From positions 768,001 to 832,000 of the forward strand of contig CAVPPB010000001.1 of NCBI GenBank assembly GCA_963707215.1: 64,000 nt of DNA, read 5' to 3'. Positions 1 to 19,621 of the stretch are shown piece by piece. Every line of letters starts with the position of its first letter. Position 1 is the first letter of the stretch. The notes beneath the pieces were generated by a model. The model was given only the letters and a program-made list of their open reading frames with translations, did no database searches and was not told the DNA's origin. The position numbers were made by a program, and so were the translations under genes. The stretch is from an uncultured Chloroflexia bacterium (GTDB lineage Bacteria; Chloroflexota; Limnocylindria; Limnocylindrales; CSP1-4).

Positions 1-56
1 GCCGGCAGTGCCCGGCGGATGTCTTCGCCGCGCTGCCCGTCCACGCAACGCGGCGG

Positions 57-476
57 TCATCCGCCGCCCTCCCCGTCGCCTCGGCGCCGTCGTGCCCGCT
101 CCTCGACCTCGGCCCAGGCGGCGGCCGTCACCCGATCCTGGTAGCGGCGAAGGTCGTCGTCGAGGGGAAGCGAGGTGAACTGCGGCGAGGGCCGGCGGCC
201 GGGTGGGGTGTCGCAGGCGTGGCCCATGATCCCGAAGTACGGCACGTGGCGCCAGCGCCGGCTGTGCGGGTCGTAGTAGTCGCTGATGGGCCGGTGCAGG
301 TTCGTCCCGCACCAGTTGCAGCGGACGCCCTGGCAGGGGCACGCGGACACGGCGCCGGCGCGTGTGGTCCCGCGGACCTCGCCGCAGGTCTCGCACCAGC
401 GGAGCCCCGCGGGGAGGGGCCGACGCGGGCGCGGCCGACGTCCCTCCGCCCCGACGCGACGGTCCGGCCCGCTCAC
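57..476 (-). CDS. Small Cys-rich, putative Zn-binding hypothetical protein (~139 aa)
   Basis: GTG at 476 overlaps the upstream TGA (GTGA). Contains CETC, CPC and CNWC motifs. Corresponds to the C-terminal part of ORF 57..1370. Confidence 0.55.
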   Translation of the reverse strand: MSGPDRRVGAEGRRPRPRRPLPAGLRWCETCGEVRGTTRAGAVSACPCQGVRCNWCGTNLHRPISDYYDPHSRRWRHVPYFGIMGHACDTPPGRRPSPQFTSLPLDDDLRRYQDRVTAAAWAEVEERARRRRGDGEGGG

Positions 477-1000
477 CGGGCCACCGCCTTGCCGGCTTCG
501 CGGGCGTGGGTGCAGTTGCCGCGGTAGCTGAAGCCCGGGCAGGTGCACGAGGCGACCCCGGCGACGATCCGGACGACGTTGACCTCGCCCGGGCGCGACT
601 TGCTGGGGAACTCGATGACCCGCTCGACGTCGGTCACCGAGGCGAGCCCCCGGCCGCTCCGGGCGAGCAGGTCCAGGACGTCGCCGAGGAGGCCCATCGA
701 GCCGCCGTCGGTCGCCGCGGCGACGCGCTCGGCCTGGACGATGCCGAGCTTCGCCCAGTCGGGCCGCTCGCCGGTCACGGCCGCCTCCACGACCGCCTCG
801 ACGAGGCTGGCCCGGTCGGCCGCCTCGGCATCGAGGACGCCGATGAGCCGGGCCTTCTGCTCGAGCAGGGCGGCGACGAAGTCGTCGAGGGTGCCCTCGG
901 CCACGAGGTAGGTGACGAACGCCGGCCGGGTCTGGCCGATGCGGTAGATCCGGTCCTCGGCCTGCCAGTGGTTGGCCGGGACCCAGTCGAGGTCGTTGCA
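473..1000 (-). pseudogene. 3' fragment of an SNF2/SF2 helicase with a C-terminal SWIM zinc finger
   Basis: Frame reads NDLDWVPANHWQAEDRIYRIGQTRPAFVTYLVAEGTLDD (SNF2 motif VI region) and ends with CTCPGFSYRGNCTH (SWIM CxC..CxH). Similarity stops at about 1000, with no motifs I-V upstream. Confidence 0.75.
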
Positions 1001-1030
1001 CCTCGGGATGGCGCGCCGGTTGCCGTGCCG

Positions 1031-2679
1031 TCAACTGCCTCGACCAACGTCCCACCCTCGATCGAGGTCCTCGCCGAGGCCGGCCGCCGCGTCGCCGACG
1101 CCTACCGAGTTGGATCCAGCGTTCCTCACGTACCTGTGAGGGCCGATGAACCCGATGTGGACCTTGCCGGTCACGCCCCCGGTGTCGTCGTAGAAGTAGA
1201 TACGCGGCGTGAGGGTCCCACCGGCTTGGGCTACCTTGATGTGCGCGTCCATCAGCTGCGTCTTCTCCCCGCGCACGCGAGGGTCGATCGGGAAGCGGCG
1301 ATCGCCGACGAACGCCTGCATCGCGGTGTCGCTGTCCGACATGGCGAGCGTGCGAGCAGTCGCGGGCCATGCAAGCGGGTGGCCCGAGTGCTCACACCAC
1401 TCCCAGAACCCGCCAGGGCGGTCGCGGTCCACGGCGTAGAGGTGCAGCGCTCGCAGAGCGTGCCAGATCTTGCGTCCCCAGACGGCGGCCTGGGGAGCGG
1501 TGTCGAGCTCGCCGACCGTCGAGGTCGCGGTCTCCGGGACGACGACGAGAGAGAGGTGCTGGCGCGCGAGACGCACGGCATCGCTGGGATCCCCAGCCGT
1601 GTCCGGCAACCCGGCTCCTGCCTGTTCGGCTGTGAGGGCTCGCTCTCCCTGCAGCTGTTGCGCGATGTACGCGACGGTGCCGCGCAGGTGCTCGTTCTCC
1701 CTCGCCGCGTCCTCGAGGTCCATGATCGCAAGGATCTTCTCGTCCTCGGCCTGCTTGGCGACGGAGCGTAGCCGTTCCGTCTCCATGACAGCCTCGTCCC
1801 ACAGCGACTCGAGTTCCTCGACCGATCGGTGCGCTCCGCTGCCCGTGAGTAGCCGGCGGACCTGCTCGTACTCCGCGGGCGCTCGACGGGCAGCGATCGA
1901 GAGTGCGAGTCTCTCCGCGATGACGCGGCCAGCGGTCTCCCACGACCTCGACGCGACGGCCGGAGGAACCACGAAGTGTCGCCATGGGGCTTCGTCGCTC
2001 CCGGCACCGGGCAGGAACACGCGCACGGCGCCGGGATCCACTGTGAGGTCCGGTCCGAGCGCCTCTGCAAGAGCCGCGACGGCATCGGACTCGAGCAGCC
2101 CGACCGACGCGACCCCCGTCAGCCTCCGGATCGTCATTCGCGCTCGCCCCTCGGCCTCGCGCTGGTCACTGCCATCGGGCGTGACGACCACGACCGGCAT
2201 GTCGCGGCCAGGATCGAGGATGAAGTCAGCGGCGATCCGAGCGGTCTCGGCGTCCCAGACCCGGTACTCCGTTCCGATCGGAACGGACCCCGCTCTGCGG
2301 GTTGCGGGCGGCCCGGAGGAGCTCCCTCACGAGCCTCGGGGGGTGAGCCTGCGGTGCTGCGAAGGCGTCCACGCACACCATCTCGAGGTCGACCCAGAAC
2401 GCCGGTCGCGCCTCCGGCGACTCCAAGACCACCAGGGTGGTGGTCCACCGCTCGTCATCGGTGTCCTCGTGGAGCACGCAGCGTAGGGCCTCCACGCCGC
2501 CCGAGGAGGCGCGAGTGACGATCACGTCCACCTTGGCACCGTCAGGCTTGCTGGCCACGCCCTCGGTCGGCGGCATGAACTGGTGCTTGCTCGCCAGCCA
2601 GTCGGCGAACTCGGCGAAGCCGCGATCGATCGCGCCTCCGGCATCCTCGCGCCAGATCGCCCGGTACGACGAGCGCCAC
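1031..2679 (-). CDS. Uncharacterised ~530 aa defence-island protein with a coiled coil and a C-terminal putative nuclease/toxin-like domain (frameshifted)
   Basis: GGAGG then GTG at 2679. Joins ORFs 2226..2576 and 1031..2200. C-terminus is AHIKVAQAGGTLTPRIYFYDDTGGVTGKVHIGFIGPH. Confidence 0.7.
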
Positions 2680-2696
2680 TGCTTGCTCCTCCGTGG

Positions 2697-5176
2697 CTAT
2701 GCCGCAACGGCCCCGCACGTTCGGCAGGCGTACTTGAGCGTGCCCCGGACCATCCGAGGTGCCGCCAGGACATCTGCACCGAACATCCTGTCCACTCAGC
2801 CCTCTTGGGGCAAGTCGGCGCGGAGCTCCTCAACCTTGTGGTCGGTCACCAGCACGGGTCTGGCGACCACGTTGGCCGTCAGATCACGAAGCGCCCAAAG
2901 CGCGGGTCGCGCAGGCAGAGATCGCTTCCACGGCTTCGTTCTGAGCAGGACATGAACCAGTCGAGCGGTCACCGGGCCCCGCACGACTGGCAGATGAAGG
3001 CGAGCTTCACGCCCCGTCCCACTCGGGCGACGCGAGCACGTCCGCCCCGAACATCCGGTCGACCCAGCCCGGCTCGGATGAGCCCGACTCGAGCGACGCA
3101 GACTCGCCGGCACGAGGACCGGGACCCAACCCCGCATGTCGCACACGCATCGAGGCGCCACTGCGTAGAGCACTCTGGGCATTCGGCGGTGAAACGGCCG
3201 GCGCTGCCGTCGAAGTCCCGGTTGGCGTCGATGCGGTGGCGGACACCGTGACAGTAGTATATGCAGCAACCACGATCCAGCAGCATCGACGCCGAGCCGA
3301 CACCGTCGACGAAGGCCTGGAGACGCTCGGCCTCTGCCCGCGCCTCCATCACCGGCTCCGCGGCGGCGCAAGGACATCGGCCGGCGAAGGTTCCGCCCTC
3401 CGCGGGCCGAGCGTCCCGCGCGCTGGGCCTCGCGCAATGCCACCCCCGCGGATTCGTACTGGGCCTCGAGCTCAGCCAGGCCGAACTCGTCCCAGGCCTC
3501 GGCCGCCGCGGTGAGCATGCGGTCGATGTCCTCCCTCGGCGGGAGCGCGACCACTAGGGTCGTGCCGGCTTCCACGTGTATCCACCGGGCGCGGCGCATC
3601 GCCTCGGTGGGCGGCGTTGTGGTCGCCGGCGGATACGCCTCGAAGCGCCCGGCCATCACCGACCAGCGGAGCTGTCCGGCCGCTCGTTCCGACGCTCCCG
3701 ATGTCCCACGTCGAGACCGGGATCAACCCGGCGCGTCGGCTGGGATCGCCGGGGACCTCATGGGACAAGGCGAAGAGTCGGCGCCACAGATCGGCGTCGA
3801 ACCGACCGCTGCCTCGGCTGACGGCAGGGGTCGGGTACAGGACGACGGTCGATCGCCCGGAGTCGGCTGCCCTGACCAAGGCGTCGGCGTCGCCGGGAGC
3901 GAGTTCGGACAGCGCCGCGCACATCGGCACGATGCGTAGAGGACCGACGTCGGCGCCGTTCAACTCGATGACGCGCATCTCGTCGTCCCACGCCGCGAAC
4001 AGTGCATCCTGGCCCCGGGCACGGATCGCAAGGCGCCCGGAGTCGAGCCGGTCTTCGAGGTTGACGGGTTCGAACCCCAGTTGCTCCAAGCCGCGAAGGA
4101 CGAGCAGAAGCGCGAACCGGTGGAAGGCCAGCGACAGCTGCTGCATGTCTTCGTAGACTCCCGAGGCGTGACCCGCTCCCGGCCTAGATGCGCCCAGTCG
4201 CGCCAGAGGTCGGCGACCCGCCGATATCGGAGGTCGTCCGTAGAGGAGGTTCGTGGCGGTCAGTGATGCCCCCGACCTCGGCGCGTCTCGGGACTTCCCG
4301 GTAGAGGACCGAGTCCTTGAGGCCGCCGACACGCTGGCGGAGCAGGTCCAAGTCGCGGAGCGTTCGCTCTGCGGTCCGGCGTGCCTCGCTTGCGTCGATC
4401 GACTCGCCCCAAAGGCGATAGAGGCGTTGCTGTCGCCAGATCGAGCCGCCGGCCGTGCTGGCCCGGTAGTCGCTCGCCTCCTGGAAGACGCGGATGAGGC
4501 GAGTGACCTCCTGGATGCGATGCTCGAGGTACGTGGAGAGACGGTCGACGAGACGCGCCGCGACCCGGTTCTCATAGATGTCGAACCTGTCGTCCCGGAC
4601 GACGGCGAGGATCCGGCGCGGGACGACGGAGCGCAGCGTGCGCCGCTCCCAGTCCTCGGTGTGCGCCGCGAGGTAGTTGGCCGCGCCGGGCGCGACACGA
4701 CGGGCCCGGGAGACGGCCATCCGCTCGACCTCGACGTCGAGCTTGGTCCGGGGACGCCGGCACACCGCCTCCAGGTGCCTCAAGCGTTCCCCGAGCTGAC
4801 GCTCGTGTGGCTGGAGGTCCGCGCGTTCGGACATACCCGGCTGGAGCGGTGAGAGCTCGGTCGCGTCGAGCCACGAACCGCCCGCCTCTATGGCCTCGCC
4901 GAGTGCGCCACCCACGGCCGTGAAGCCGCGCACGTCGAGCGGATCCGGGATCTGAGCCTTGCCTATCGAACCCTCGGTGCGGGCGGCGCCATCGCCGGCG
5001 AGCGTCCAGCGGCCGCTGGCATCGGGGACCAGGAAGCTCGGGGACGTGACCGGGAACGTGTTCTGGAGAAGCAGGCCCTCTCCCGAGGGTCGCACGAGGA
5101 AGCGACCGAGGACGACGGGCTCGGTCGGTCGGTCGTCGCTCGTCCCTGTCAGCCGGTCGCGGACCTCGGCGGTCAC
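2697..5176 (-). CDS. DUF2357/McrC-like protein with multiple C-terminal Zn ribbons (several frameshifts)
   Basis: GTG at 5176 overlaps the McrB-like stop. Contains YLAAHTEDW..DRFDIYENRVAARLVDRL (DUF2357-type YENR). C-terminal CPEC, CATC, CQSC and CRTC motifs. TAG at 2697-2699. Confidence 0.7.
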
Positions 5177-7514
5177 GCCGTCTCGCCAGCCCCGAGTCGC
5201 CGCAGTTCCTCCCCGATGATCTGCGTCGAGCGATCCGGCTCGGTCCCTTTGCCGAGGGTCGACCACGAGTCGGTGATGCGGTCGCGGAGGGCTATCAGGT
5301 CCTCGGCCCGGTTGTCGTGTCGATCCCTGATCTTGCGCAGGAGCTTGGTCGCGAGCAACGTGGTCGACCGCCTCGCCAGCCGTGCCCCCGGAGGCCACGA
5401 CTACCGGGACGAATGCCAGCATCTGCCGCTCCAGGCGATTGCCCCAGCCGATCCCGAAGCGGCTGCCGAGGTCCTGGGCAAGCTGGTCCCGCAGGTACGC
5501 GAATGCCAGGCCGGCGACCTTGCGGTGCTTGCGCCGAGCGTCGGCAAAGGCCTGGTCGAGCGCCTGCATGGAGATCGGGTCGCGTGGTGTCGTCTCCTTG
5601 AGATCGAAGGGCTCCGGGCGGATCGGCAGCTCCATCACGTGGGCCCGGTCGAAGGTCTTGTCGGCGAAACCCATCGTCGTTTCATCGTGGTTCGCGGTGC
5701 CGAGGAACCAGACATTCGGGGGGATGGGGAGCTTCCGCCCTTCGCTGAAGAGCCGTGGCGCAGCATCGACGGCTGCCTCCATCAGGTCGAGCCTCTGGAG
5801 CTCCGGCCGCTGCTCGAGGGCCGACAGCAGGTCCGCGAAGTACTGCTCAGGGTGGGAGAGGTTCATCTCGTCAAGCACGACGAAGAACGGCCGATCTGCG
5901 TACTCGGGGCATCCCGCCTTGTAGAGAGCCTGGAGGAACTCGCTCTCGTAGTAGCGCCGCTCGAACTCGTTGAAGTGGCCGATCAGATCGTGCCGATCGC
6001 GCCAGCCGGCCTGGACCTCGATGAGCTCCATCCCGGCGCCGATAGCGCGCGCGACCGCGATCGGCAGGCTGGTCTTCCCCGTACCGCTGATGCCCTGCAG
6101 GATGTGGAGGCGGCTCATCGCCATGCCGCCGAGGAAGGCCCGCACATCTCGAGGGGAGTAGTAGAGGACGACGTCTGACCCGGGCGACGGCGACGCGATC
6201 GCGCAGATCGTCCGCGAACGCCGCTAGGTCGATCGGTTCGTCGCTCAGTCCGACCGACGACTGGAGTACCCCGCTTGCGTCCATCCCCGCGCACTGCGGG
6301 AAGGGGCTGGCGTCCTGGGCTCGGGCGATCCGCTCATCGACGTCCTGCCGCAACTCGTCGAGCGTGGCCCGCAGTGCGCTCACGTTGGTTTCGAGCGCAT
6401 CCTTGCGATCGCGCAGCGTCTCGAGTTCGAGGACCCCGATCGTGGAGCGGTCCGACAGCTCGCGTAGGGCGTTGTTCTCTTGGCGGAGTCGCCCTAGGTC
6501 CGCCTGGGCTGCCTCGAGCGCCCGTGCGAGTCCCTCGTAGCGGACCTGCTCGTCCGGGCTGAGCCTACGGGCGAGTTCGTCTCGCAGGCGGTCACGCTCG
6601 TCGGTCAGCGCGTCAATCTGGCGCTGCACTTCCTCGAGTGGCCGGTTCCCGAGTCGTCGGACCGCTTCGTCGCGATCACGCAGCTGGGCGAAGAGCCCGT
6701 CGCGCTGCTCGCGAGCGGCGGCAAGCTGTTCCTCCAGTGCGCGCTGCGTCGCTGCGGCCTGCTCGAGGGCAGCGGCCGCCATGCGCTCGACGCGAACGTC
6801 GAACTCGGCCCGATCCTCCGCGAGCAGCTGGCGGTCGATCTCCACCTGCCCGGCGAGCTTCCTTGCCTCGAGTCGCTTCGCTTCGAGTTCGGCGGTGATC
6901 CGCTCGTCTTCCTCGCGCCGCTGCTGTGCCCATGCCGCCCGCTCGGATGCGATGGTGGACCGTGCCTGGCTCAGCTCCTTCTGTGCCGCGTGGATCTCCG
7001 ACTCGAGCACGGCGAACGACTCGCGTCGCGCCGCCGCGGCCTCGGCGATGAAGCCGGCCTCAGCGTTCAGCTCGCGTGCCCGCAATTCCTCCTCGCGTCG
7101 GGAGATCTCGGTCGCCTTGTCGGCGAGGCTGGCGTCCTCGGCCTTGGCCCGTTCGAGCAGTTCCTTCGCGAGGGCATGTTGGGCCCGGGCTTCCTCTTCC
7201 CGCCCGCTGACCTCGCTCGCTCGCCGATCCAGATCCGCCTCGCGGCCGTCGAGCCGCTTCTCTCGGGAGTCGCTCAGGGTGACCGCCTCTTGCGCCTTCT
7301 TCGCAAGCTCGCCGAGACTGCCCTCGTCGCTCGGGCCTGCCGAGCGTGCGGCGGCTTCGATCTCGTCCGGGAGCGCTGCGCCGCGAGCGGTCTCGAGGGC
7401 CTGGGTGATCTGCGCGGCCGCGTTCTGCTGGACCTGGGGCCGCTGCACGGGCCGCTGCGGACCAGCGGGGCGGGGCTGCTGACCCGTCCGGGACCGACTC
7501 CTTCTCTTCGTCAC
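5173..7514 (-). CDS. McrB-like AAA+ NTPase with a long N-terminal coiled coil (frameshifted)
   Basis: About 430 aa E/R/A-rich coiled coil in ORF 5871..7514, then Walker A GISGTGKT, Walker B VLDEMNLS and GTANHDETT..DKTFDRA (McrB-family signature). GGAGG upstream of GTG 7514. Confidence 0.85.
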
Positions 7515-7542
7515 GATCTCCTCCCCTTGAGGTCAGTCTCCC

Positions 7543-9085
7543 CTAGTCGCAGAGGCCTGTCAGCAGCCCGACGGTGCTGTACACCTCGTCGGCGACGGCG
7601 AGCGCATGCTCCCTCGTCACGCCACCTGGTCCGTGGACCGCGCCCCCGCCGCTCTCGGCGAGTTGGTCGAGGCGTTCGAGGAAGTCGGGATGCGTCACGC
7701 CGATCCGCCTGAAAGGGTGGGCCTCGTCCGTACCGGCCGCTAGGACCGAAGCCACGATGCTCGGTCGGAGGCGCCACCCGTTGCCCTCGCACGCCGCCTT
7801 GACCTGAACCGCTCTTACGCGCACCAGGGGTCTCGGGATCGGCAGCCGGAAGGCCGAGAGCGCTCGCCGTCGCCTCGAGGATCTCGCGACACAGCTCCTG
7901 GTCCTTGATCGGCTCCCTGCCGTTGTAGAGGGCACGCCATGCCTTGGTCACCGGGTGCTCGGAAGCGACGGCCGCGAGCGCCTCCTCGAGGACCGTCCGT
8001 GCCGTCTTGACGAGATCCTGGAGGCGGAAGCTCGGGTATGAAGCGCCCAACTGGCCGGCCTCGACGCAACCGATCTCCATCTCCACCAGGCGCTCGAAGT
8101 ACGAAAGGCTCCGCGCAGCCAGCGAGAGGCGCCGCTCCACGTTGCCCTCGGCCTCGGTCCGTACCTCGGCGGTCCACCGGCGCTGGGCCTCGACCTGGGC
8201 GGCGAGAGAGTCACCGATCATGTGCCCGATGAAGTCGTCCAGGCCCGTCGAGCGTTCGGCCTCGCGCTCGATCGCACGGCGCAGGTCCATCGAGAGGCCG
8301 AGCCCGAACGGATCGCACGTGAGCCACTCGCCAGGGGCGTCGCTGCCCTCCTGAAGGTAGACGTACGTCGTGAGGAAGACCGGCGTCGGCTCGCTGTCGA
8401 CGACCGAGACCCGGTCGAACCGGCCCGCGTGGGTGCCGGTCGGCATCTCGTCATCGTCGCCCTCGTCATCCCCCGGCTCGAGGCCTCGCAGCGCCCATCG
8501 GTGGCGGCGAACGGCGCGAAGGATCTCGGCAGTCCCCGGGATAGCTGCGACCGACTCGCGAGGGAAGACCCAGAAGGCCGTCTCTCGGCGGGGACGACCC
8601 TTCGAGCCGAGCACGAGCTTCGGGTAGGCCGTGCCCACATGCTCGACGTCGGCGTAGCTGAGCGTCTCCATCACCCTGGGCCATAGGGACCCCGTCCAGG
8701 GGTCCTGGAAGACGTGGCTGGCGACCAGCGTCTGGGAGCCGAACGCCTCGTCCTCGAACATGGCACGCCCTTCCTCGGTGGGTAGTCCGTGCTGGTCGAG
8801 GAGCCTCCGTTCCTGGAGCTGCAGGACGATCTGTGCCACGAGGTCACGCTCGATCCGCATCAGCGACCCGATCCGGTCCAGGCCCGTGGTGCCCGACCGG
8901 CACAAGCCGATGACGGCCTTCTCGATCACGTTCAAGCGCCGCTCGCGTGCCTCCGGCGCCACGACGCGATACAGGAGCGCGGGCCACAGGAGGAAGCGAC
9001 GCGCGGAGTACCGCGTCCCCGCCGGGTGGCGGGGCCCGAAGTACAGGACCGAACAGTCAACCCCGAACGATCGCACCGAACTCAC
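7543..9085 (-). CDS. Putative effector: N-terminal winged-helix-like region and helical, possibly degenerate HEPN-like, C-terminus (frameshift near 7850)
   Basis: ORF 7511..9085 joined to 7543..7935. LNVIEKAVIGLCRSG..LVAQIVLQLQERRLLD..TEEG is a wHTH-like pattern, followed by VFQDPWTGSLWP. Overlaps the helicase stop. Confidence 0.65.
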
Positions 9086-12000
9086 CGCTGCACAGCTGAT
9101 GGAAGGCGACGAGCCCGCGGACGTGCTCCCGAGCCGCCTGCCCGGTCAGCATCCCGGCATCGCCGACGGCGACGAGGAGACACTGCTGCCGACTCATCGC
9201 GACGCACATCCGGTTCTCGAGCGCGATGTGTCCCCACTTGCGCCGGGCCGCCTTCTCGTCGACGGGATCGATGTCGTTCGAGCGGGTGACCGACAGCAGG
9301 ACGACGTCGAACTCCTTGCCCTGGAAGGCATCCACCGTCCCGACACGCAGTCGTTCCCGAAGCTGACCATCTGCACCGCGTGTCTCGAGCCACGGGCTCG
9401 CGACGCGGTAGTAGCCCTCGTCGGTCCGCTCCGAGAGCCCGAGCGGCTCCATGGCGCGCAGGATCTCGTCGACCTGAGCGGAGTAGAACGAGATCACTCC
9501 AAAGCTCAGATCTGGGCGGGCTCGGCTGAGGCGGTCGATCTCCTCGGCGATCCATCGTGCCTCAGGGGTCCGCCGTTTGCTCAGCCCGCCCGACTCGTGG
9601 CCCCGCTCGAGCGGGATGTCGACCCACGCGGCGACGAGCCCTTCGTAGCCGGGGAGGTCGTTGGCGAACCCTTCCGCCGGCCTTCCAGAGGCGAAGCTCT
9701 CGCCGTACGGCTCGTAGAAGGTCGCGCTGACGAAGTTGCCCAGCGCGGGGTGCATCCGGTACTGGACGTCGAGGGTGACGGTCGCTTTCACGCCGTCGGA
9801 CGCCTCGCGCGCGCGTAGCTGGACGAAGAGCCTCTCGAAGAGGCTCTGCTTGAGCGCGTCTCGCGTCGCTTCGACGATGGACCGGTCCGCCTGGCGCTCG
9901 ACATCCGGCTCGAGGATGTGGGGAAGCTGACGGTGATCCCCGACGAGGATGATCCGGCGTCGTCCACGCGCCATCGGGATGAGCAGATCGAGCGGGTTGG
10001 CGCGCGCGGCCTCGTCCACGATCACGTTGGCGAACGCTGTGCCCTCGGTCTTTTCCACTCTCATCTGCGAGCCGACGGCCTGCTGACACGTTGCCGCGAG
10101 CACCGCGGTGTAGGCGCGGACCGCCGACCTGACGCCCTCGACGTCGTTATCGAGATCGTCGAGGTACTCGTTGAGCGCGATCGCCTCACCCCCCGCGCTC
10201 TCGCGAGCGACGCGGGAGAGCTCGTCGGTGAGCTCGATCAGCAGATCCGCGACCTCTCCGTGAACGGCGGGTGCGCCCGGCGACATCTCCGGGGTGAGCC
10301 GATCGACCAGGGCGCCCTGGAGCGCCGCGATCTCGTGCAGGAAGGGGGGAGGATCGGCCGAGTCCCACTCGGCCGCGGCTCTGAGCAGTTGCGACGACTC
10401 GTCATCCGCGAGCCCGGCGAGCTCCAGGCGTCTGAGGGCGCGTGCGGCATTGTGTGGCCCATCGTCCCCGAAGCCGGCCGGCTCGGTACGGAGGGCCCGG
10501 ATGGCGCGCAAGAGGGCTTCGCGCTCGTCGTCGGCTGACCCGACGATCGGCCGCTGCGAGCGCGACAGCTCCATTCGGAGCTGCGCGACGCGGTCCAGCA
10601 GGCGAGGCGGGATGAACTCACGAGAGATGTCGGCGACCTCGTCCAGAACGCGCAGGCCCTCCCGGCGATCGATCGGAGCCGCGACATAGGCGGCCGTCAG
10701 GCGGCGGATCCGGCGGAGGGCGGCGTTCACGGGGTACTCGTCGATCGCAGCGAGGTCGCCCCGGAGCGCGTCGATCCGCTCGCGTCGCCATCGGTCCACG
10801 CCGTCGTCCGGTTCGCGGCCGAGCCGACCGCCGACCTTGACCGCCGGCAGCCCGAATACGATCGTCTTGGACGCCGCGTTCTCCACCGCATCGTGCTGGT
10901 AGCTCGTCAGGAGGGTCTGGCCCGCGAGGTCGAGCTGCTCGCCGAGTTCCGCAAGTCGGACCTCGAGGGCAGCGATCATCTTGGTCTTCCCTGTTCCGGG
11001 AGGACCCTGGATCAGGGCGATGTCGGGCGTGTTGAGCGCGACTCGCAGGGCCTCGATCTGGCGCGGGGTCGGATCTGAGCCGAAGACCGAGCGGACACCG
11101 CGCGACAGCGGGCTCTCCATCCTCCGGCGCCGGAGCGGCACGGGCCGGTCCTCCAGGATCAGGCCGAGCTGAGGCATCGCGGCCTCCGCAGAGACCACCC
11201 GGGCCAGAGCTTCTTCTCGGCGATTGAGGCGGGTGCGGTCCCCGCTCAGGCTGAGGAACAGCAGCCCACGCTCAGGCGGGTCGACTGCGTCGTCGCCGCC
11301 CTGCGGTTGCACGAACAGCAGTCGCCGTGGGACATCCCGGTGGGCGTAGGCGCCGACGAAGGTGCGCGGACGACGCTCCGCGCGCGTGATGGCGGCGTCC
11401 GGGCCGGCGGTCACCTCTTCATCGGTGGCGAGCTCGAGCGGGAGACTCGTCGCGGCCTCGAGGTCGGTGATCTCCTCCGCGCCTCGCAGGACGTCGAGGG
11501 CCCGTTCGAAGCGCGCTGCGTCCTCGATCCGAAAGCTCCAGCGGCCATCCGCGAGGCGCTGGCGGCTGTCGTATCGGAGGACGCCGAGCTCGCGCGCCCG
11601 TCTCGCAACGCTCGCCCGCTCGAGTTTGTTGTACTCGCTCCACAGACCAAGGTAGCTGCCAGCACGCGCCACCAGTTGGTCGAGCTGGGTCTCGGCGGAT
11701 CCGCGGAATGACCCTGCGATCGTGGCGTCACGAAAGATGACCGGCGCTCGGACCACCTCGATGGCGCTGGAGAGCTCTGCTTCGCGCCCACGCTTGGCGG
11801 CAACGACGCGGCTAACGAGGAGGCGGTCCTCTGCGTCGCGAGTGACGTCGATCGCGAACCCGCGGCCCATCAGCCGGAACTGCCGACGCTCCTGTGCCCC
11901 GCGATCCGGGCCGCCCGTCAGGAAGATGCAAGGCGGTCCGTTCGACGATGTCAGCGTCAGGTGGTCGTCCAGCCATCGGGCGACCTCGTCGACGGCCATG

Positions 12001-12389
12001 ACATGACCGAGCCGCTCCCCGAGCGACTCGACGATCTTCTCGTCGACCCCGATCTCGATGGTGTCGGACCAGTCCTGCCGAGCCGGGAACTCGTGCACCT
12101 GGACGAGCGCGGACTCGCTCACGCCCGCCCTCGGTCGCGTCCCGAGGATCCATGCGATCCTTGGCAGGTCTCGATCCCGCAGCTCCGATAGGGCCAGCTT
12201 GGCGCGGACATCGACCCCGTCGACGTGCCAGCCGTCCTGGCCGACGCGCAGCAGCGCGTCGCCCGTGGCGTCCGAGAAGAGGAGCTCGGCCTCGGTCTTC
12301 GGAGCCAACCCCGTTCCGAAGTCGGCATCGAGTGCGGGCCGGACCTCGACGGTCCTGGTCTGGCCGTACGGCAGCTCGTGGAACCTCAC
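9057..12389 (-). CDS. Superfamily 1 helicase, UPF1/DNA2/NAM7-like (1110 aa)
   Basis: Motifs QGPPGTGKT, VDEAARA, LVGDHRQLP, QYRMHP, GTVDAFQGKE and NRMCVAMSR. Confidence 0.93.
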   Translation of the reverse strand: MRFHELPYGQTRTVEVRPALDADFGTGLAPKTEAELLFSDATGDALLRVGQDGWHVDGVDVRAKLALSELRDRDLPRIAWILGTRPRAGVSESALVQVHEFPARQDWSDTIEIGVDEKIVESLGERLGHVMAVDEVARWLDDHLTLTSSNGPPCIFLTGGPDRGAQERRQFRLMGRGFAIDVTRDAEDRLLVSRVVAAKRGREAELSSAIEVVRAPVIFRDATIAGSFRGSAETQLDQLVARAGSYLGLWSEYNKLERASVARRARELGVLRYDSRQRLADGRWSFRIEDAARFERALDVLRGAEEITDLEAATSLPLELATDEEVTAGPDAAITRAERRPRTFVGAYAHRDVPRRLLFVQPQGGDDAVDPPERGLLFLSLSGDRTRLNRREEALARVVSAEAAMPQLGLILEDRPVPLRRRRMESPLSRGVRSVFGSDPTPRQIEALRVALNTPDIALIQGPPGTGKTKMIAALEVRLAELGEQLDLAGQTLLTSYQHDAVENAASKTIVFGLPAVKVGGRLGREPDDGVDRWRRERIDALRGDLAAIDEYPVNAALRRIRRLTAAYVAAPIDRREGLRVLDEVADISREFIPPRLLDRVAQLRMELSRSQRPIVGSADDEREALLRAIRALRTEPAGFGDDGPHNAARALRRLELAGLADDESSQLLRAAAEWDSADPPPFLHEIAALQGALVDRLTPEMSPGAPAVHGEVADLLIELTDELSRVARESAGGEAIALNEYLDDLDNDVEGVRSAVRAYTAVLAATCQQAVGSQMRVEKTEGTAFANVIVDEAARANPLDLLIPMARGRRRIILVGDHRQLPHILEPDVERQADRSIVEATRDALKQSLFERLFVQLRAREASDGVKATVTLDVQYRMHPALGNFVSATFYEPYGESFASGRPAEGFANDLPGYEGLVAAWVDIPLERGHESGGLSKRRTPEARWIAEEIDRLSRARPDLSFGVISFYSAQVDEILRAMEPLGLSERTDEGYYRVASPWLETRGADGQLRERLRVGTVDAFQGKEFDVVLLSVTRSNDIDPVDEKAARRKWGHIALENRMCVAMSRQQCLLVAVGDAGMLTGQAAREHVRGLVAFHQLCSGEFGAIVRG

Positions 12390-13763
12390 GCCTGTCTCGC
12401 TCGTTCCATGCGGAAGGTCGCCACCCGATGCAGGACGCCCGCGTCGCCGAGGTGAAGTCGCCAGGACGCGCCCCTGAGGTCGATCTCCCGAGTCCGCTCG
12501 TCCAGGTCCACCGACTTCCCGCCGCTCGGTGGCACGAGGCGATAGGAGGACTCGTCGAGGGCCCGCAGCGATACGCGCGTCCCGTCAAACGCCATCGCCA
12601 GGACCGGCAGCTGCCCGGCCGAACCGCTTCGCCCTCGGGCGATCCGGTCGGTCACGATCACGGTCTCCCCGGGGGGCAGGGCGAGGGTCGCAACCGACGG
12701 ACGGCGCCTCTTCGCTCCGGCCTCGGCCTCGGGGTCCGAGAGGATGAATGAGGCGAGCACGAACGTCGGCCTTGCCTCGTCGCACCAAGGGCAGACGGTG
12801 GCGTTCATGTAGTAGGTGGCCCCACAGGTGGGGCACGTGAGGGTCGCGTCAGACGCCGCGTGCAACCGCAATGCCCACTCGGCGACGCCGGGCCTGCGTT
12901 GCGGGTCCTGTAGGCCGAGCCCGAATGATCGGGCCGCAAGGTCGGCGAGGAGGCGCGAGAGCACGACCGGTCGAGCGATGCCCACTGAGGCACGGTTCCG
13001 CGAGTCGGCCGCGTCATCGATCCAGGGTAGGTCTCCGGCGAATGCGGCATCCTCGAGCTCCGGGGGGCCTTCGGCCACCAGGTCGCCGATGAGCGGATGG
13101 GCGAGCGAGAGTGTCTGGAACGCAATCACGGCGAATGCATGGGCGTCGCTCCAGCGAGCTCGCACCGGTCCTGGCCCGAACCAACTCGGGGGCGCCGAAC
13201 CCGGGCGTGTACACGACCCCCGCCCCGAGCGAGGAAGCCGATCTCAGGTTGTCGGCGTCGATCATGCGGACCTCGACGGCGTCGCTCGGTGCGGAGACGA
13301 AGATGTTCTGCGGCGACGGGTCTCCGTAGATGAGGCCCTTGCCGTGGAGGGCCGCGAGCGCGTCCGCGGCACGAGCGAGCAGTCGCAAGCGTCGCCGCAG
13401 TCCGCCCGCGGCGAGGTACCACGCCGCCGGCGACTCCATCCCCCTGGGCACGTAGGCGAGAGAACCCAACGGCTCCATCCCGGTGAGAAGCTCCATGACG
13501 TACCCAAGGTGAGGCTCCTTGAGCACCTCGATCGGACGCGCCACGTCCAGCCCGCCGAGATCCAGCCTGCGCACACGGGTCAGCTGGTTGCGGAGACGGT
13601 CTCGCGTGGAGGGAGCGGAGTCGGCGAGAAGCTTCGCCGCGAGAAGGCCGCCCTCGACCTCGTACACCACTCCCTGGCCCCCACGGCCGATCTCGCGAAC
13701 GAGTCGGTACCGGACGCCTGTGTCATCGGTCACGATGAGGTCGCGCGTTCCGCCCGCGGTCAT
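12386..13763 (-). CDS. Ser/Thr protein kinase, TerY-P/YegI-like, with a C-terminal Zn ribbon (frameshift near 13150)
   Basis: IGRGGQGVVY, LAAK, YGDPSPQNIF, IDADN, TPGFGAPE, SDAHAFAV, then CPTC..CPWC. ATGA overlap with the PP2C gene. Confidence 0.88.
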
Positions 13764-14470
13764 GAGTCCCGGGCCCACAGAACCGCGAGTGTCTTGTCGT
13801 CAAGATGTCGAGGCGTCGGCCAATCGGTCAGCTCGCTCCGGAGGGCACGCAACCGGGGAACGGGGTCGAGCCCAGCGAAGGACTCGACGAGCCACGCCGC
13901 GAAGTCACCGACGCGGTCGGGCAGCAGATCGTCCGAGACACCGTCCGTGGCGAGCACGACGGTGTCGCCCGGGCGCCACGGCTGCGTCCGGAGGCTCCAC
14001 GTCGCCCCTGAGCCGAGTGCCGTGGCATCGGTCGCGAAGCCCGCTCGCGGCCCACTCACCCACTCGACGGCGCCGTCGGCGCTGCGTACGACCGCCAGGC
14101 CGTCGCCCACTGCCCCGATGTGGACGGCCCCGTCCGGGCAGACCACTGCGAAGAGGCATGTCGCCGCGCAGTCGTCCCCGGTCGCCGGCGCGATCTCCTC
14201 GAGCCACAGCTCCTCGATCAGCCGAGGGAGTTCATCGGGTGCACCGTGCCCGGCCTTGTGCCACAGGCGCACGGCTCTCGCGCATGCACGACACGCCGCG
14301 GCGGCCCCTCGACGAGCCAACGGTCGCGATCCCACCCCATCACTCACGACAGCGAGGCTCCCATGCGAGCCGGTGGCAGAGAGCCAACGATCCTCGTTCG
14401 GGAGGCCGAGATCGCGGTGTGCCGGGCCGATGACGCTGGCCCCGAAGCAGACCGTCGTCACGTGATCCAC
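13760..14470 (-). CDS. PP2C-family protein phosphatase (TerY-P/YegK-like)
   Basis: GASVIGPAH..NED, VVSDGVGS, VGDG, LATDGV and DDKT motifs. Confidence 0.92.
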   Translation of the reverse strand: MDHVTTVCFGASVIGPAHRDLGLPNEDRWLSATGSHGSLAVVSDGVGSRPLARRGAAAACRACARAVRLWHKAGHGAPDELPRLIEELWLEEIAPATGDDCAATCLFAVVCPDGAVHIGAVGDGLAVVRSADGAVEWVSGPRAGFATDATALGSGATWSLRTQPWRPGDTVVLATDGVSDDLLPDRVGDFAAWLVESFAGLDPVPRLRALRSELTDWPTPRHLDDKTLAVLWARDS

Positions 14471-14478
14471 GACCGGAC

Positions 14479-15142
14479 CTAGAAGAGGATCTCGTCGAGC
14501 GGCGGAGGATCGATCGCGATGATGGAGTCAGGACTCTCGCTGCGGAGTCGCGTTGTCACGCTCATCGTCACCCACCGGAAGAAGGCCCGGATGTGGCGGG
14601 CCTCATGTGCTGCGAAGACTCTCGCTTCGGGGGTGGCAAGGAACCTTGCGAGCATCGCCCCGTCCGCATCGTCTCCGATCCCGAGCGCGAACCGGGAGGC
14701 CTTCATCGCCCGTTCCGAGTTCAGCAACCGCTCGAGGGGCGCCTCCCATTCGTCGTTCGGCTGGCCATCCGAAACCAGAACGACGGTCGGACGGTAGGCG
14801 CGACCGGGAATCTGGTCACGGTCCTCCAGAAGGTCCGTGACCAAGTCGAATGCGGCTCCCATCGGAGTGCCCCCCGCGGCTTCCATGGGCACCCAATCGA
14901 CGGCGGGCGCGGGCGTTAGCTCCTGGTGGAGCCGCGCAGCCCCTCCGCCGAAGGTGATGATCGCGACCTCGATCGAGGCGCGCGTGTCGTCCTCCTCGGC
15001 AAAGGACCCCAGCATCTCCTGGACGGCCAGGTTGAGCGCGTCGATCTTCCCGTTCGTGCTCATGCTGCCGCTGACGTCCGCGAGGATGAGTACGGGGAAG
15101 CGGACGTGGGGTCGAAGCCGTGAACTCACGCAATCCGCCCAT
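14479..15142 (-). CDS. TerY/YegL-like von Willebrand factor A protein
   Basis: MIDAS motif DVSGS, plus GGTPMG and LVSDGQPND. True start is probably ATG 15142 (MGGLREFTASTPRPLP) after GGGAGG, with a frameshift in a G/C run near 15095. Confidence 0.9.
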
Positions 15143-15552: not shown

Positions 15553-18500
15553 CTACCCCGCCCTCGCCGGGCACATCGCCCGGAAGTCGCACCAGCTCGC
15601 AGGTCTTGCCGCCCTTGACCGGCGTCGCCGCGAAGTCGCCCGAGCGGATCCGGGCCGCCCGCGCCAGGATGTCCTCGCGGGCCGCGTCGAGCTGCTCGTC
15701 GGTCCGGGTCGTCGTCATCCGGGTCGCCGCCTCGGTGAAGTAGAGGGTCACCCGCTCCGGCGTCCCGAGGCCCAGCGCGTCGCGGCAGGCCAGCGCGTAG
15801 ATCGACAGCTGGAGGCTCTCGTCCACGCCCTTCTGGCTGCCGGGCCGGCCGGTCTTGTAGTCGAGGACCTCGATGCCGCCCGAGGCCAGCCGGTCGATCC
15901 GGTCGATCGAGCCGTGGACGCGTCACCGGCGGCCGACCCGTCGGCCGGCTCGAGGACGAGCTCGAACGGCTCCTCCTCGCCGAGCACCTCGCGGCCGTCG
16001 GCGGCGAGCTCGCCCTCCCAGAACGCGTCGAGCAGCGGGCCGGTCCGGGCCCGGTAGCCGTCCTCGGCGGCCTTGGTCGCCGTAGGTGCCGGGCTTCCAC
16101 TCCTCGGCGAAGAAGCCGCTCGAGGTCCTCGCGGGTCGGCGGCGGCTCGCCCCGGGCCGCTCGCTCGCGTCGCTCCTTGGTGAACCGCTCGAAGGCGGCG
16201 TGGGCGGTCGAGCCGAACGTCAGGGCGGCCCGACCCTCCGGCTCGGGGAAGCGGTAGACGTGGCGGAAGGCGTACTGGAGCGGGCAGCGCTCGTAGACGG
16301 TCGAACTGGCTGTAGCTGAAGCTGCCGGCGGAGGGCGGCGACCTCGAGCAGGTTCGCGCCCGAGCCGCTGTCGAGGGCGACGGTCCGCATCGTCAGCGGA
16401 TCGAGGCCGCGGTCTCGGGCCTCGTCGGCGGTCATGGCCGCCGGTCCCCGATGCGGGCCAGCTCGGCGGCCAGGGCGCGGCGGGCGTCCTGGGTCTCGGG
16501 GTCGGCCGGGCGGGTGCCCTCGATGAGCCCGAGCAGCTCGGATGCCCGTGACACGCAGCGCCAGGCGGTGCTCTCGGGCGGTCGGCAGGGGCATGACCTG
16601 GCGGAGGGCGCGGTCCTGGGTCCGAGCGGCCGCCTCGTCCGTCTCCGCCTCGTCCTCGTCCGTCGTCCTCCGCCTCGGCGGCCTCGCTCCGCCTCGCCCG
16701 CCTCGATCTCGCTCGACATCCGCTCCGGAGCTCCGGCCCCGCCCCCTCCCGCAGCTCGAGCACGAACGGCGAGACCCGCCGCTCGACCGTCGGACCCTCG
16801 TGGGTCGTGAGCATCAGGCGCTCCCGGGTCCGGGTCATCGCGACGTAGAGGAGGCGGCGCTCCTCCTCGTTCAGCAGGTCGCCGACCGGGACCGGCTCGC
16901 GGAGGAGCTCGCGCGGGAGGATCTCGGCAGACTCACGGCCCACCGGCCACTCCCCGTCGAGCAGGCACGGGACGAAGACGAACGGGAACTCGAGCCCCTT
17001 CGCCTGGTACAGGGTCATGAGCCGGACCCCGTCCACGTCCTCGGTCAGCTCGACGCTCGTCGGCAGCTCCCCGCCGGCGGTCTTGTACGCATCGAGGTAG
17101 TCCACGAAGGCCGCCAGGCTGCCCTGCGGGTGCTCCTGCTGCCAGTCGGCCGCGAACCGCAGGAACGAGGCGACGTTGGCCGCCTGCCGCTGGCTCTCTC
17201 GCGTGTCCGCCGCGATCGAGGTCGAGGACCGTGCCGGTCCGCTCGAGCAGCTCCTGGAGGATCGTGTGCGGCCCCTCGCGCCAGGTCCTGGGGGCGAGGT
17301 CGTCGATCGTGTCGAGGACGCGGCGCAGCTTGGCGCGGGTCAGCGGGGCGATGGGCTGGCGGGTAGGGGGCGCATGGCCGGCGGGGGGCGCTGGCGGCGG
17401 GGCTCCGGGGTGGGGTCTCCTCCTGCGGTGCCCGTCCACGCAACTCGACGGCCTCGGATGCCGCGTCCGGCCATGCGGGTATGCCCAGAGTCGAATAGCG
17501 CTCGGAAGGGTCGCCCCCCTCCTCGCCCTCCTCCTCGGAGTCGCGCCGCATGTCGCGCTCGGCCAGGAGATCGAGGGTCCGAGGCTGGAAGCCGCCACCG
17601 ACCCCGCCCTGACCGTCGCCGCGACCGTGGCCGTCGTCGCCGTTGTCGCCGTTCTCGCCGTCGGCCCCGGCAGCGCCGCTCGCGCCGATCTCGCCCGGAC
17701 GCGTCGTCAGCACCGACCCGGTCTCGACGACGTCGCGCATGGCCTCGACGATGTGGCGCCGGTCGTAGCGGGCCATCCGGGCAACGGCCAGGATCTCGAG
17801 CGCGTCGAGCCGCCACGGTGCCGGCGGAGAGCATCCGCAGGAGCGCCACGTCCTGGTGCGGGTCGGCGATGGCGCGGAGGGTCTGCTCGAGGTCGCGGAT
17901 CTCGGGCGTCTCGAAGAGCGACAGCCCGACCGACGACGGTGTACGGGATGTCCTCGTCGCGGAGCCGGGCGACGATCGCCTCGCGGTGGCGGTGCTTGCG
18001 GTAGAGGATGGCGACGTCCCACGGGAGGGCCGGGGCGCGGTCGGGGCCGGGGTCCCACTCCGGCGGGCCGCGATGCGGTCCACGATCGTGACCGCCTCGT
18101 CGGCCGGGCCGGTGCAGACCACCAGCTCGACCGGGGCCTCGTCGCCGCGCCGGGTCCGCAGCCGCTTGTCGGGCTCGTAGCGCATGACGTTCCGCTCGAT
18201 CAGCCGGTTGGCCGCCGCCAGGACGTGCCGCCGCGAGCGATGGTTCTCCTCGAGGCGCAGCCGCGTCGGCGGCCCGGGCGGCGGTCCGCCTCGGGATCGT
18301 GGATCGGCGGCAGGGCGAAGCGGCGGTCCATCTCCGCGAACGCCGCGTAGCTGGCGCCCCGGAAGCGGTAGATCGACTGGTCGTCGTCGCCGACGACCAT
18401 GACGTTGTCGGGCCGGTCGGGCGTCCGGCCGAGCAGCTCGACGAGCTCGATCTGGGCGACGTTGGCGTCCTGGAACTCGTCCACCAGCAGGTAGCGGAAC

Positions 18501-19621
18501 TGGCGCTGGTAGCGGCGCAGGACGTTGGGCCGCTCGCGGAAGAGGCGGATGACGGCGGCGATCTGCTCCCCGAAGTCGAGAGCCCCTCTCCGGTGCAGCT
18601 CCTGCTGATACGCCCGGTACACCAGGGCGAGCTCACGGAACCGGAGGACCTCGAGGGCGGCGCCGTCTACCACGTACGTCCGGGCGAGCTCGGCGATCTC
18701 GGCCTGCTCGTCCTCGGTGAAGGTCTTGATGTTGCGGACCTTTCCGTCGCCGGCGACGCTCCGCCGTGCCTCTCGGTCGGCCGTCTTCCAGACGTCCTCG
18801 TCGGAGGGCTCCAGGCCGAACGGCTTGGCGGCCTCGGCTCGGACATCGCGGCGGTAGCGGGCATAGGCACTCCGGACATCCCGGACCGGCCGCAGGTTGC
18901 CCATCGCCCCGAGGCGCTCGATCGCCGGCTCGAGCGGGCCGTGCTCGGCCTCGAAGGCTTCCTGCTCGGCCTCGGCGAAGGCCTCGACCTGGTCGGGCGT
19001 GACGAGCTCGTCCTTGGCCCGGTTGATGAAGGCGACCATCTGGCCGAGCCAGAAGCCACCGTCCCCGCCGCGGCTCGAGTGGTAGACGAGCGGCAGGTCG
19101 GGCCACAGGTCGCGCAGGAGGAGCAGCTGGCCGACCCCGTCGAGGACGTCGGGGCGCTGGGAGAGGCCCGCTTCCGCGGCATGCTCGGTGAGGATCCGGT
19201 GGCAGAAGCTGTGGAAGTTGCTGACTGCAAGACGGGCAAGGGTCGCCGGCCCCAGGGCGGCCTCGAGGCGGTCCTGGAGCTCCTTCGCGGCCTTGACGTT
19301 GTAGGTCAGGACGAGGATCTGCTCGGGGACGAGGGGGCCGTCGAAGGGCGGCGCGTGGCGGCCAGGTCGTGCGGCTGCCGCGTCGGGGGGCGCGTCGGGG
19401 GCCCCGGCCCAGGCGGCCTCCCCCTGCGTCTCGAGCAGGTGGCGAACCCGTTCGACGATGACCCGCGTCTTGCCCGTCCCCGCACCGGCGATGACGACGA
19501 GCGGCCCCTCGTCCCACTCGACGATCGCCCGCTGCTCGTCCGAGAGCGCGGGGCGGCCGGAGGTGGGCTCCGTCGGCTCGGGCGATGCGTCGGGGGGCAT
19601 GAGCGGGGGGAGAGAGCTCAT
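15553..19621 (-). CDS. UvrD-type ATP-dependent helicase fused to a PD-(D/E)XK Fe-S nuclease (AdnB/AddA-like), multiple frameshifts
   Basis: IAGAGTGKT, VDEFQD, VGDDDQSIYRFRGA, TLYQAKGLEF and EERRLLYVAMTR, then YERCPLQY, IDRIDR, DYKTG, QLSIYA and C-terminal CxxC..C. Confidence 0.88.
17471..17501 (+). repeat. Dispersed 31-bp motif, copy A (inside the helicase CDS)
   Basis: ccatgcgggtatgcccagagtcgaatagcgc, similar to 19624-19654 (-) and 41439-41469 (+). Confidence 0.8.

Follow-up and report, generated by a model that had tools for sequence, protein, structure and literature searches.

The 14-kb block at positions 1031 to 15142 of the 64,000-nucleotide stretch of DNA analysed here (hereafter the window; G000:C1:768001-832000, from a genome assembly of 3.26 Mb in 5 contigs with a completeness of 84.8%) is very probably a horizontally acquired islet made of two units, in which the many breaks of the reading frames are likely to be mostly errors of the consensus sequence. 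The first unit (15142-2969) is a Type II CoCoNuT with a TerY-P module, whose seven genes encode in order a TerY-like vWA protein, a PP2C phosphatase, a Ser/Thr kinase and the proteins CnuH, CnuE, CnuB and CnuC; the second (2679-1031) is an independent gene of the HEC-07 family, called gene 8 below. A Type II CoCoNuT with TerY-P is an already described, computationally predicted kind of system, to which the window adds one instance.

All real genes between 1031 and 15142, eight in number, lie co-oriented on the minus strand, and every junction could be read directly in the sequence, just as a preliminary annotation made from the letters alone (the sequence-only reading) had described them. The vWA gene starts at ATG 15142 and ends with TAG at 14479-14481, 8 bp before the GTG start of the PP2C gene at 14470; the PP2C gene ends with TGA at 13760-13762, its stop codon sharing an ATGA with the kinase start (ATG 13763); a GTGA likewise holds both the kinase stop (12386-12388) and the cnuH start (GTG 12389); and the cnuE GTG at 9085 precedes the cnuH stop at 9057-9059, giving a 29-nt overlap. 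The cnuE stop (TAG 7543-7545) is followed by a 28-bp gap with a GGGGAGGAG site and the cnuB start GTG 7514, and the cnuB stop (5173-5175) overlaps the cnuC GTG at 5176 (GTGA). Finally, a TAG stop at 2697-2699 is followed by 17 nt that include GGAGGAG and then by the gene-8 GTG at 2679; gene 8 stops with TGA at 1031-1033. Neither promoter-like sites nor, on the minus strand, terminator-like sites were found between 300 and 15800. Domains were called by Pfam and PADLOC profile scans of the window's open reading frames (ORFs), the PADLOC profiles being used without curated cut-offs; the PADLOC scan, a check that the sequence-only reading had proposed, supports TerY and the other domain calls, and the intact homologues in a related locus (L016) give the same Pfam and PADLOC domain picture as the window genes.

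The block differs from its surroundings in composition. Its GC content is 0.66-0.71, as compared to 0.74-0.755 in the flanks, and the GC content at third codon positions (GC3) is 0.80-0.88 in the locus genes and 0.89-0.99 in native ORFs, so the earlier impression of a less GC3-biased codon usage was correct. No CnuH orthologue was found in 40 relatives, in which the best match (E 2.5e-12) covers the helicase core only, and the nearest CnuH relatives, at 56-59% identity, come from records labelled Polyangiaceae, Sorangium and Betaproteobacteria, with Archangium also among the nearest. Low GC and GC3, the lack of a CnuH orthologue in relatives and the distance of the nearest homologues are all consistent with horizontal acquisition of the block, as judged from sequence comparison. 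The locus is a further natural case of predicted RNA-targeting, type IV-like restriction, one that the 40 sampled relatives lack.

The assignment of the first seven genes is supported by comparison with other genomes. A scan of species-representative genomes with the intact helicase yielded 70 loci at 28-59% identity, and their gene content was determined by tblastn with the seven L016 proteins at E 1e-6. All seven genes stand in the same order on one strand in 30 of these loci, and the genes detected are colinear in all 70 (seven genes were detected in 30 loci, six in 7, five in 17, four in 4, three in 5, two in 2 and one in 5); the incomplete loci are mostly short contigs or more distant loci, where CnuE or CnuC did not reach E 1e-6. 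When mapped on the window, intact homologues of all seven genes are colinear with it. The gene order, whose absence elsewhere the sequence-only reading would have taken as a refutation, is therefore conserved in other genomes. It is also the order published for Type II CoCoNuTs. The sections of Bell et al. 2024 (PMC11090510, eLife 13:RP94800) used here describe TerY-PP2C-STK(ZnR), that is, a triad ending in a Ser/Thr kinase with a zinc ribbon, as frequent but not core; CnuH as an SPB domain (an SmpB/HIRAN-like OB fold), an RTL domain (RelE/colicin D-like), an OB/stalk and a helicase; CnuE as a wHTH with one HEPN domain; CnuB as a coiled coil and a GTPase with an NxD signature, usually followed by E or D; and CnuC as a beta-sandwich, DUF2357, an inactivated nuclease and a zinc ribbon. 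The nucleotide- and substrate-binding domains (NBD/SBD) of Hsp70 on CnuC would mark Type III-A.

The TerY-P triad that the sequence-only reading had named is borne out by Pfam, PADLOC and the gene order of the related loci. The vWA gene (14479..15142, minus strand) matches Pfam VWA_2 (E 3.6e-10) and PADLOC TerY (E 4.1e-5) and carries a MIDAS-type DxSxS motif (LADVSGSM); its N-terminus, MGGLREFTASTPRPLP from ATG 15142, agrees with those of its homologues, after which the frame shifts once near 15094, where a run of four C contains one extra C. The PP2C-family phosphatase (13760..14470, minus strand; 236 aa, Pfam PP2C_2 E 1e-35) has an intact frame and is 57% identical to the L016 protein. The kinase (12386..13763, minus strand) ends in a zinc ribbon (CPTC...CPWC); its Pkinase match (E 6.4e-7, 29.5 bits) lies below the Pfam cut-off of 31.7, and it also matches the PADLOC PD-T4-6 kinases and the N-terminal kinase part of MkoA (E 2.6e-4). 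One frame break near 13151 divides it, such that residues 8-201 and 202-460 of its homologue lie in two frames that abut at 13152/13150. The association of TerY-P with such a system, mentioned in the earlier annotation, agrees with what the cited parts of Bell et al. 2024 report.

CnuH (9057..12389, minus strand), whose frame is unbroken, is a UPF1-like SF1 helicase of 1110 aa (AAA_11/AAA_12, E 1e-25 to 1e-29). An AlphaFold2 model of its residues 1-400, with a predicted local distance difference test score (pLDDT) of 81.8, was compared with solved structures by VIA and Foldseek. In the VIA comparison residues 6-103 resemble an OB fold of HIRAN type (3k2y, Z 8.2; the HIRAN domains of HLTF and Rad5, Z 7.5), residues 112-210 the tRNase domain of colicin D (5znm/1tfk, Z 6.1), and residues 244-400 a stalk/OB region (SETX Z 7.6, UPF1 Z 6.5, Sen1 Z 6.5-7.6), the last part also matching domain II of EF-Tu (Z 6.6); the best Foldseek match of the N-terminal model is Upf1, at a probability of 0.99. 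As modelled, the N-terminal 400 aa fit a HIRAN/OB-like domain, a colicin-D/RelE-like (RTL) domain and a UPF1/SETX-like stalk/OB. The next protein, CnuE (7543..9085, minus strand), is a wHTH protein with a C-terminal HEPN-like region; it has weak matches to wHTH-PRTase_assc (E 1.6e-3) and to the N-terminal part of MkoB (E 2.7e-4), a frame break at about 7830-7851, and 48% identity to the L016 CnuE, spread over two frames.

CnuB (5173..7514, minus strand) consists of a putative coiled coil (about 430 aa rich in Ala, Glu, Arg and Leu) and an McrB-like GTPase (AAA_5 E 2.5e-5; PDC-M26A E 8.6e-36) with a Walker A motif GISGTGKT, a Walker B motif DEMN and the signature NHDE (GTANHDE). GTAN[HQ]DE is found in 30 of 30 CnuB homologues, and the window protein thus carries the Type II NxD signature. 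Its frame is broken twice, near 6200 and 5357. In the N-terminal part A, E, R, L, Q, D and K make up 76% of 360 residues and one stretch of 230 residues is free of Pro; a simple heptad periodicity test was indecisive, a weak match to LmuB (SMC-like) was seen at E 2.5e-3, and phmmer against PDB sequences returned nothing for the putative coiled coil.

CnuC (2969..5176, minus strand) is McrC-like, with a DUF2357 match that falls below the Pfam cut-off (E 1.2e-3; L016 CnuC, E 4.3e-3) and C-terminal Cys motifs (CPEC, CATC and CQSC; in homologues CPTC/CxCxxC/CxxC/CPSC). The general Pfam scan reported no Hsp70 family in the window or L016 CnuC and no PD-(D/E)xK family in either, a result that stands apart from any alignment to an active McrC, as none was made. 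Residues 1-710 of a CnuC homologue map colinearly over five frame segments, and the frame is broken at least five times, four times between the tblastn segments and at least once in the tail. The first copy of the tail is closed by TGA 2969-2971. The final 95-160 nt of the gene are present twice, at 2975-3070 and at 2709-2802, the latter copy extending to about 2860; the direct repeats pair 2758-2802 with 3026-3070 (78%) and 2709-2727 with 2975-2993 (84%), at a spacing of 266-268 nt. This second, diverged 3' tail (2697..2860, minus strand; ...RPVLV...G, a stop codon, VDRMFGADVLAAP...YACRTCG) is recognised by the direct repeats and by its match to homologues (residues 726-755 of the L011 CnuC match 2801-2712), has TGA where homologues have Trp, and ends 17 nt before gene 8. 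Recombination may have left it as a scar, it may have arisen by tandem duplication in frame, or it may be an artefact of the assembly.

Taken together, the gene order, the NxD signature, the CnuH folds and the similarity of CnuC support the identification of genes 1 to 7 as a Type II CoCoNuT with TerY-P. The CnuC similarity includes a printed stretch of Ca. Accumulibacter cognatus CnuC (listed on the 'Type II CoCoNuT' sheet of Supplementary file 3), which closely resembles window CnuC and shares with it the 9-mer VLYREVPRR, found also in L010-L014, L016 and L024. Relative to the Type II systems as described in the cited sections of Bell et al. 2024, the window has the same seven genes in the same order, an NxD GTPase whose long N-terminus is probably helical, cnuHE and cnuBC frames that overlap, a kinase-zinc ribbon fusion, a CnuC that has DUF2357 and Cys motifs of zinc-ribbon type and lacks an Hsp70 unit, and OB/HIRAN-like, colicin-D-like and UPF1-like parts in CnuH. 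It differs in that its CnuE HEPN lacks the Arg, as in 16 of 30 close relatives, that no RtcR gene is adjacent and the distance from TerY to the native helicase gene is only about 430 bp, that its frames are broken, and that a second partial CnuC tail and a HEC-07-like gene are added. The assembly of a putatively coiled-coil McrB, a DUF2357 McrC, a UPF1-like helicase and a wHTH protein that had been called CoCoNuT-like is thus borne out and sharpened to Type II. Type III-A was considered and rejected, as CnuC has a zinc ribbon and no Hsp70 match and CnuE a single HEPN-like region.

Several observations count against this reading or against the function of the copy, quite apart from its broken frames. 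The domain fold matches of CnuH are moderate (Z 6-8), and no SmpB stands among the best 50 VIA matches listed for the model. At the HEPN site of window CnuE (LDQLAESGGGAVH) the His is kept and the Arg is missing, so that the RxxxxH motif of CnuE was not found in the window; the predicted effector RNase may, from its sequence, be inactive. In an alignment Rx4-6H is present in 14 of 30 Type II-like CnuE homologues (from loci L010-L057) and the Arg absent in 16, the His being kept in all; R[ND]xxxH is clear in the cyanobacterial proteins, and the Arg-less ones form a myxobacterial and betaproteobacterial subclade. Loss of the Arg does not exclude membership in Type II, because Bell et al. 2024 (PMC11090510) call RxxxxH 'conserved in most cases', in the passage cited here, and so allow exceptions; with the CnuC nuclease also inactive according to that paper, it does make the catalytic effector of this copy doubtful, and an Arg-less HEPN would count against a simple 'HEPN cleaves RNA' mechanism in this subclade. 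Finally, the literature searched contains no experimental work on CoCoNuTs under the Cnu names, in agreement with the earlier statement that these systems lack experimental characterisation. About half of the subclade, the window included, has no HEPN Arg, on which the proposed RNase mechanism depends, and this could guide experiments on CoCoNuTs.

None of the papers found reports an experiment on a CoCoNuT, so we infer the mechanism of the first unit entirely from the scheme of Bell et al. 2024, as given in its cited parts. The phosphorylation-gated DNA/RNA-targeting complex that the sequence-only reading had proposed would likewise be drawn from the literature. The vWA/PP2C/kinase triad would serve as a phosphorylation switch; CnuH, with its UPF1-like helicase and its OB/HIRAN-like and colicin-D/RelE-like N-terminus, would engage RNA together with the wHTH-HEPN protein CnuE; and the coiled-coil NxD GTPase CnuB and the nuclease-dead, zinc-ribbon CnuC would form an McrBC-like motor, tied by coiled coils to the helicase pair. 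The outcome might be RNA-directed restriction or abortive infection. The second unit, the HEC-07-family gene, would act alone as an RNase defence of BECR/RelE type.

The frameshifts to which the sequence-only reading alluded are present in the sequence as given, and we count at least 12 of them: one each in TerY, the kinase and CnuE, two in CnuB, at least five in CnuC and two in gene 8, the PP2C and 3.3-kb CnuH frames being unbroken. They might mean that the locus is a decaying array of pseudogenes, in which the breaks are real mutations and the system is non-functional. For the genome as a whole, 71 conserved genes compared with a relative's ORFs gave 16 frame changes in 107 kb (0.15 per kb), so that the roughly 0.85 breaks per kb of the 14-kb locus exceed the background about sixfold; rpoB and rpoC are intact; the spread is uneven, with at least five breaks in the 2.2 kb of CnuC and none in the 3.3 kb of CnuH; most breaks lie outside homopolymers, only 5 of about 12 falling at runs of at least four identical bases; and the TGA at a conserved Trp in the second CnuC tail and the missing HEPN Arg could be read in the same way. 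These points must be set against others. Every gene of the locus is full-length, 45-68% identical to intact homologues and without a large deletion, and no internal stops were found in the frame segments checked. The native neighbours on both sides are broken at a similar density, with at least four frame changes in 5.6 kb of native flanks: the gene for a UvrD-type helicase with a PD-(D/E)xK C-terminus (AdnAB/AddAB-like; about 15570-19546, minus strand) has at least three relative to an intact 1336-aa orthologue (G002) and the next gene (20713-21979, minus strand) has one, and on the other side the one PEPCK_GTP match of the genome (G000:C1:765284-766330, some 2 kb ahead of the window) has an internal TGA and a piece in a second frame. 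Frame changes in 11 of the 71 conserved genes, in an assembly of five contigs and incomplete to the degree given above, form the typical pattern of consensus errors, and the TerY break is a single extra C in a run of C. The HEPN Arg is absent in 16 of 30 intact relatives as well, and its absence is thus no sign of decay here. A homopolymer test, in which 4 of 9 junction intervals contained a run of at least four identical bases against 7.6 such runs per kb, was indecisive. Because the genes are full-length and colinear with intact homologues and the native flanks are similarly broken, we consider it probable that the breaks reflect a locally poor stretch of a consensus of long-read type, and real decay of the locus, or at least of CnuC, rather unlikely. 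Frame breaks are in either case common and locally dense in this assembly, which makes this copy unfit for cloning without resequencing.

Gene 8 (1031..2679, minus strand) has its own GGAGGAG site and GTG start, and its frame is broken near 2668 and near 2290; its two frame pieces together align from end to end with a family of proteins of about 515-550 aa (60 matches), the best intact homologue being P0002 (523 aa, 78-81% identity). The gene-8 ORF extends 25 codons (1031-1108) beyond the point (about 1109) at which all 26 full-length aligned homologues end, which is either another indel near the true stop or a real extension. The PADLOC HEC-07 profile (PDLC04161) matches the window piece at E 4.2e-12, P0002 at 4.7e-17 and the homologue P0035 at 5.3e-21, and it matches the family member at E <= 1e-8 in 8 of 9 annotated metagenomic loci. 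In the parts of the Payne et al. 2024 preprint (10.1101/2024.01.29.577857) considered here, HEC-07 is a single-gene defence candidate embedded in Hma, is among the seven of nine candidates that reduced plaquing, and has an AdoMetDC-like N-terminus, a thioredoxin-like domain without CxxC and a RelE-like C-terminus. The AlphaFold2 model of P0002 (pLDDT 88.7) has a thioredoxin fold at residues 133-258, which VIA aligns to 2ppt_B (Z 10.6, root-mean-square deviation 2.5, 106 residues) and to 3vfi_A (Z 9.6); this stretch contains no Cys in P0002 or in window gene 8, and hence no CxxC. The C-terminal 70 residues match the profile of the C-terminal domain of Menshen NsnC (window E 3.5e-6, P0002 2.4e-6, the family member in L155 4.3e-9), a BECR/YafQ-like RNase with an H-R-H triad according to the relevant passage of PMC12065111. 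The window has H479, R492, H507 and H514, each conserved to at least 90% across the family, and residues 450-513 of the P0002 model form one helix and four to five strands. Structure searches did not add a RelE fold: whole-model Foldseek and VIA searches of P0002 gave no such match, the thioredoxin domain dominating, a profile search of PDB sequences with the C-terminus returned only coiled-coil proteins, and ESM Atlas gave no usable match for residues 425-523. Nor was the AdoMetDC-like N-terminal fold confirmed by the whole-model search of P0002, in which the top Foldseek rows for the N-terminal part were YwmB and START-like folds at E near 1e-3 to 1e-2. Gene 8 thus resembles HEC-07, as far as the preprint and profile describe it, in its profile match, its length (about 520-550 aa), its thioredoxin-like middle domain without CxxC (including the match to 3VFI, an entry used in the preprint), its putative RNase-toxin-like C-terminal domain with conserved His, and a family member beside HmaA/HmaB. 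It differs in that the profile match ends at about position 383 of 553, the C-terminus matching the NsnC profile instead, with a helical segment (residues 286-342) joining both halves, and in that the window gene follows a CoCoNuT and does not lie within Hma.

The sequence-only reading had taken gene 8 as an additional component of the complex, that is, all eight genes as one integrated system, and on this point the comparison went the other way. The gene follows a CnuC-type stop on the same strand at a distance of 17 nt, and no terminator-like site was found on that strand; the diverged second CnuC tail that precedes it may mean that it once travelled with a CnuC gene; and an extra RNase could be useful to a system whose HEPN lacks the Arg. 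The family, however, was found in none of the 70 CoCoNuT loci (query P0002, E <= 1e-6), and tblastn of the seven CoCoNuT genes (E <= 1e-4) against 79 metagenomic loci of the family gave no match; an additional tblastn of window pieces from 1-3100 against the 70 loci gave no match either, although that search, which missed even the CnuC tail, is insensitive. Only one of 400 other genomes of the phylum has a member of the family. Its neighbours are unrelated defence genes. In L117 (L117:7755-15866) it lies directly upstream of HmaA and HmaB, as befits a family first described as embedded in Hma, with a type IV enzyme also near, and elsewhere it is accompanied by a type I restriction-modification system and UzuA, of Uzume (L188), by an LmuB-like gene (L145), by a GmrSD/HEC-06-like gene (L181), by PbeA and a methylase (L189), or by PDC-M11A, PDC-S48 or TniQ, as annotated in 9 of the 79 loci. 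Furthermore, HEC-07 is a single-gene system in the preprint, gene 8 has its own ribosome-binding site, and the slot 3' of cnuC is filled by different genes in other loci: in 13 of the 30 CoCoNuT loci that are complete, 20 ORFs on the same strand were surveyed, which gave ZacB/PLD-like genes (L011, L018), DuOB with DUF488 PDC-M45 (L041), AbiU/AIPR (L049) or nothing recognisable. Since the gene was not found in the 70 CoCoNuT loci and both its family's neighbours and the genes 3' of cnuC vary, gene 8 is a HEC-07-family member that occupies a variable slot beside the system and is not a CoCoNuT component; its membership in one eight-gene system we regard as improbable. We would give just as little credence to a more elaborate scheme, in which a HEC-07-like BECR RNase is a mobile 3' cassette exchanged among CoCoNuTs by recombination in the CnuC tail, of which the second tail would be the scar, and in which it supplies the missing RNase effector of this HEPN-Arg-less, nuclease-dead subclade, co-transcribed with and gated by cnuBC. 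The variable slot, with its other defence genes elsewhere (ZacB/PLD-like, DuOB with DUF488, AbiU-like), and the partial duplicate of the CnuC tail, which hints at recombination there, could both guide experiments.

A type I Mokosh system (MkoA/MkoB) that simply adjoins unrelated McrBC and TerY-P systems is a very improbable reading of the helicase-wHTH pair: the helicase (MkoA, E 7.2e-87) and, in the downstream protein, the N-terminal wHTH part do have homologues there, and the kinase matches the N-terminal part of MkoA (see above), but the MkoB match covers only profile positions 21-132 of 610, Pfam finds no phospholipase D (PLD) domain in the window or L016 CnuE, the kinase is a separate gene, and the pair stands between TerY-P and CnuB/CnuC in a colinear array that is fixed across several phyla, often with overlapping frames, and is exactly the arrangement published for Type II in the sections of Bell et al. 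2024 cited.

Two other known systems share parts of the locus. Like canonical McrBC, it has an AAA+ McrB-like GTPase (AAA_5) and, next in order, a McrC-like partner with DUF2357, the stop codon of the one gene overlapping the start codon of the other; it differs in having an NxD signature (NHD, then E) where the canonical NxxD was not found, and a long, probably helical N-terminus in place of a small DNA-reader domain, and Type II is said in the cited part of Bell et al. 2024 to lose the McrC nuclease motif. Stand-alone TerY-P (Gao et al. 2020, as cited by Bell et al. in those sections) has the same vWA-PP2C-Ser/Thr kinase order, whereas in the window the kinase has a zinc ribbon at its end where an OB fold would stand, and the triad forms the 5' module of an operon that is larger.

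The 14-kb block lies between the native helicase-nuclease gene and a remnant of a gene for an SNF2-family helicase, with housekeeping genes beyond. No tRNA genes were found in the window from 1 to 22000, and no integrase among the ORFs scanned at the borders or in the 12.5 kb before the window. The remnant (476..1030, minus strand), which marks the border and lies outside the system, is 5'-truncated and has motif VI (...DLDWVPANHWQAEDRIYRIGQ...), a SWIM zinc finger (Pfam SWIM, E 6.1e-4) and a GC3 of 0.99; it begins right after the gene-8 stop in the same frame, matches the C-termini of PADLOC DpdE, ZorD and DrmD at E 9e-10 to 1e-5, and has no close orthologue in 25 relatives. That it is a leftover of HmaA was considered and rejected, HmaA matching at E 0.0046 as compared to 9e-10 for generic SNF2 C-termini such as that of DpdE. 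About 330-630 bp ahead of the start of the window, with PEPCK on one side and the SNF2 remnant on the other, is a small DUF2442 ORF (E 1.6e-9; L198:11368-11673, minus strand).

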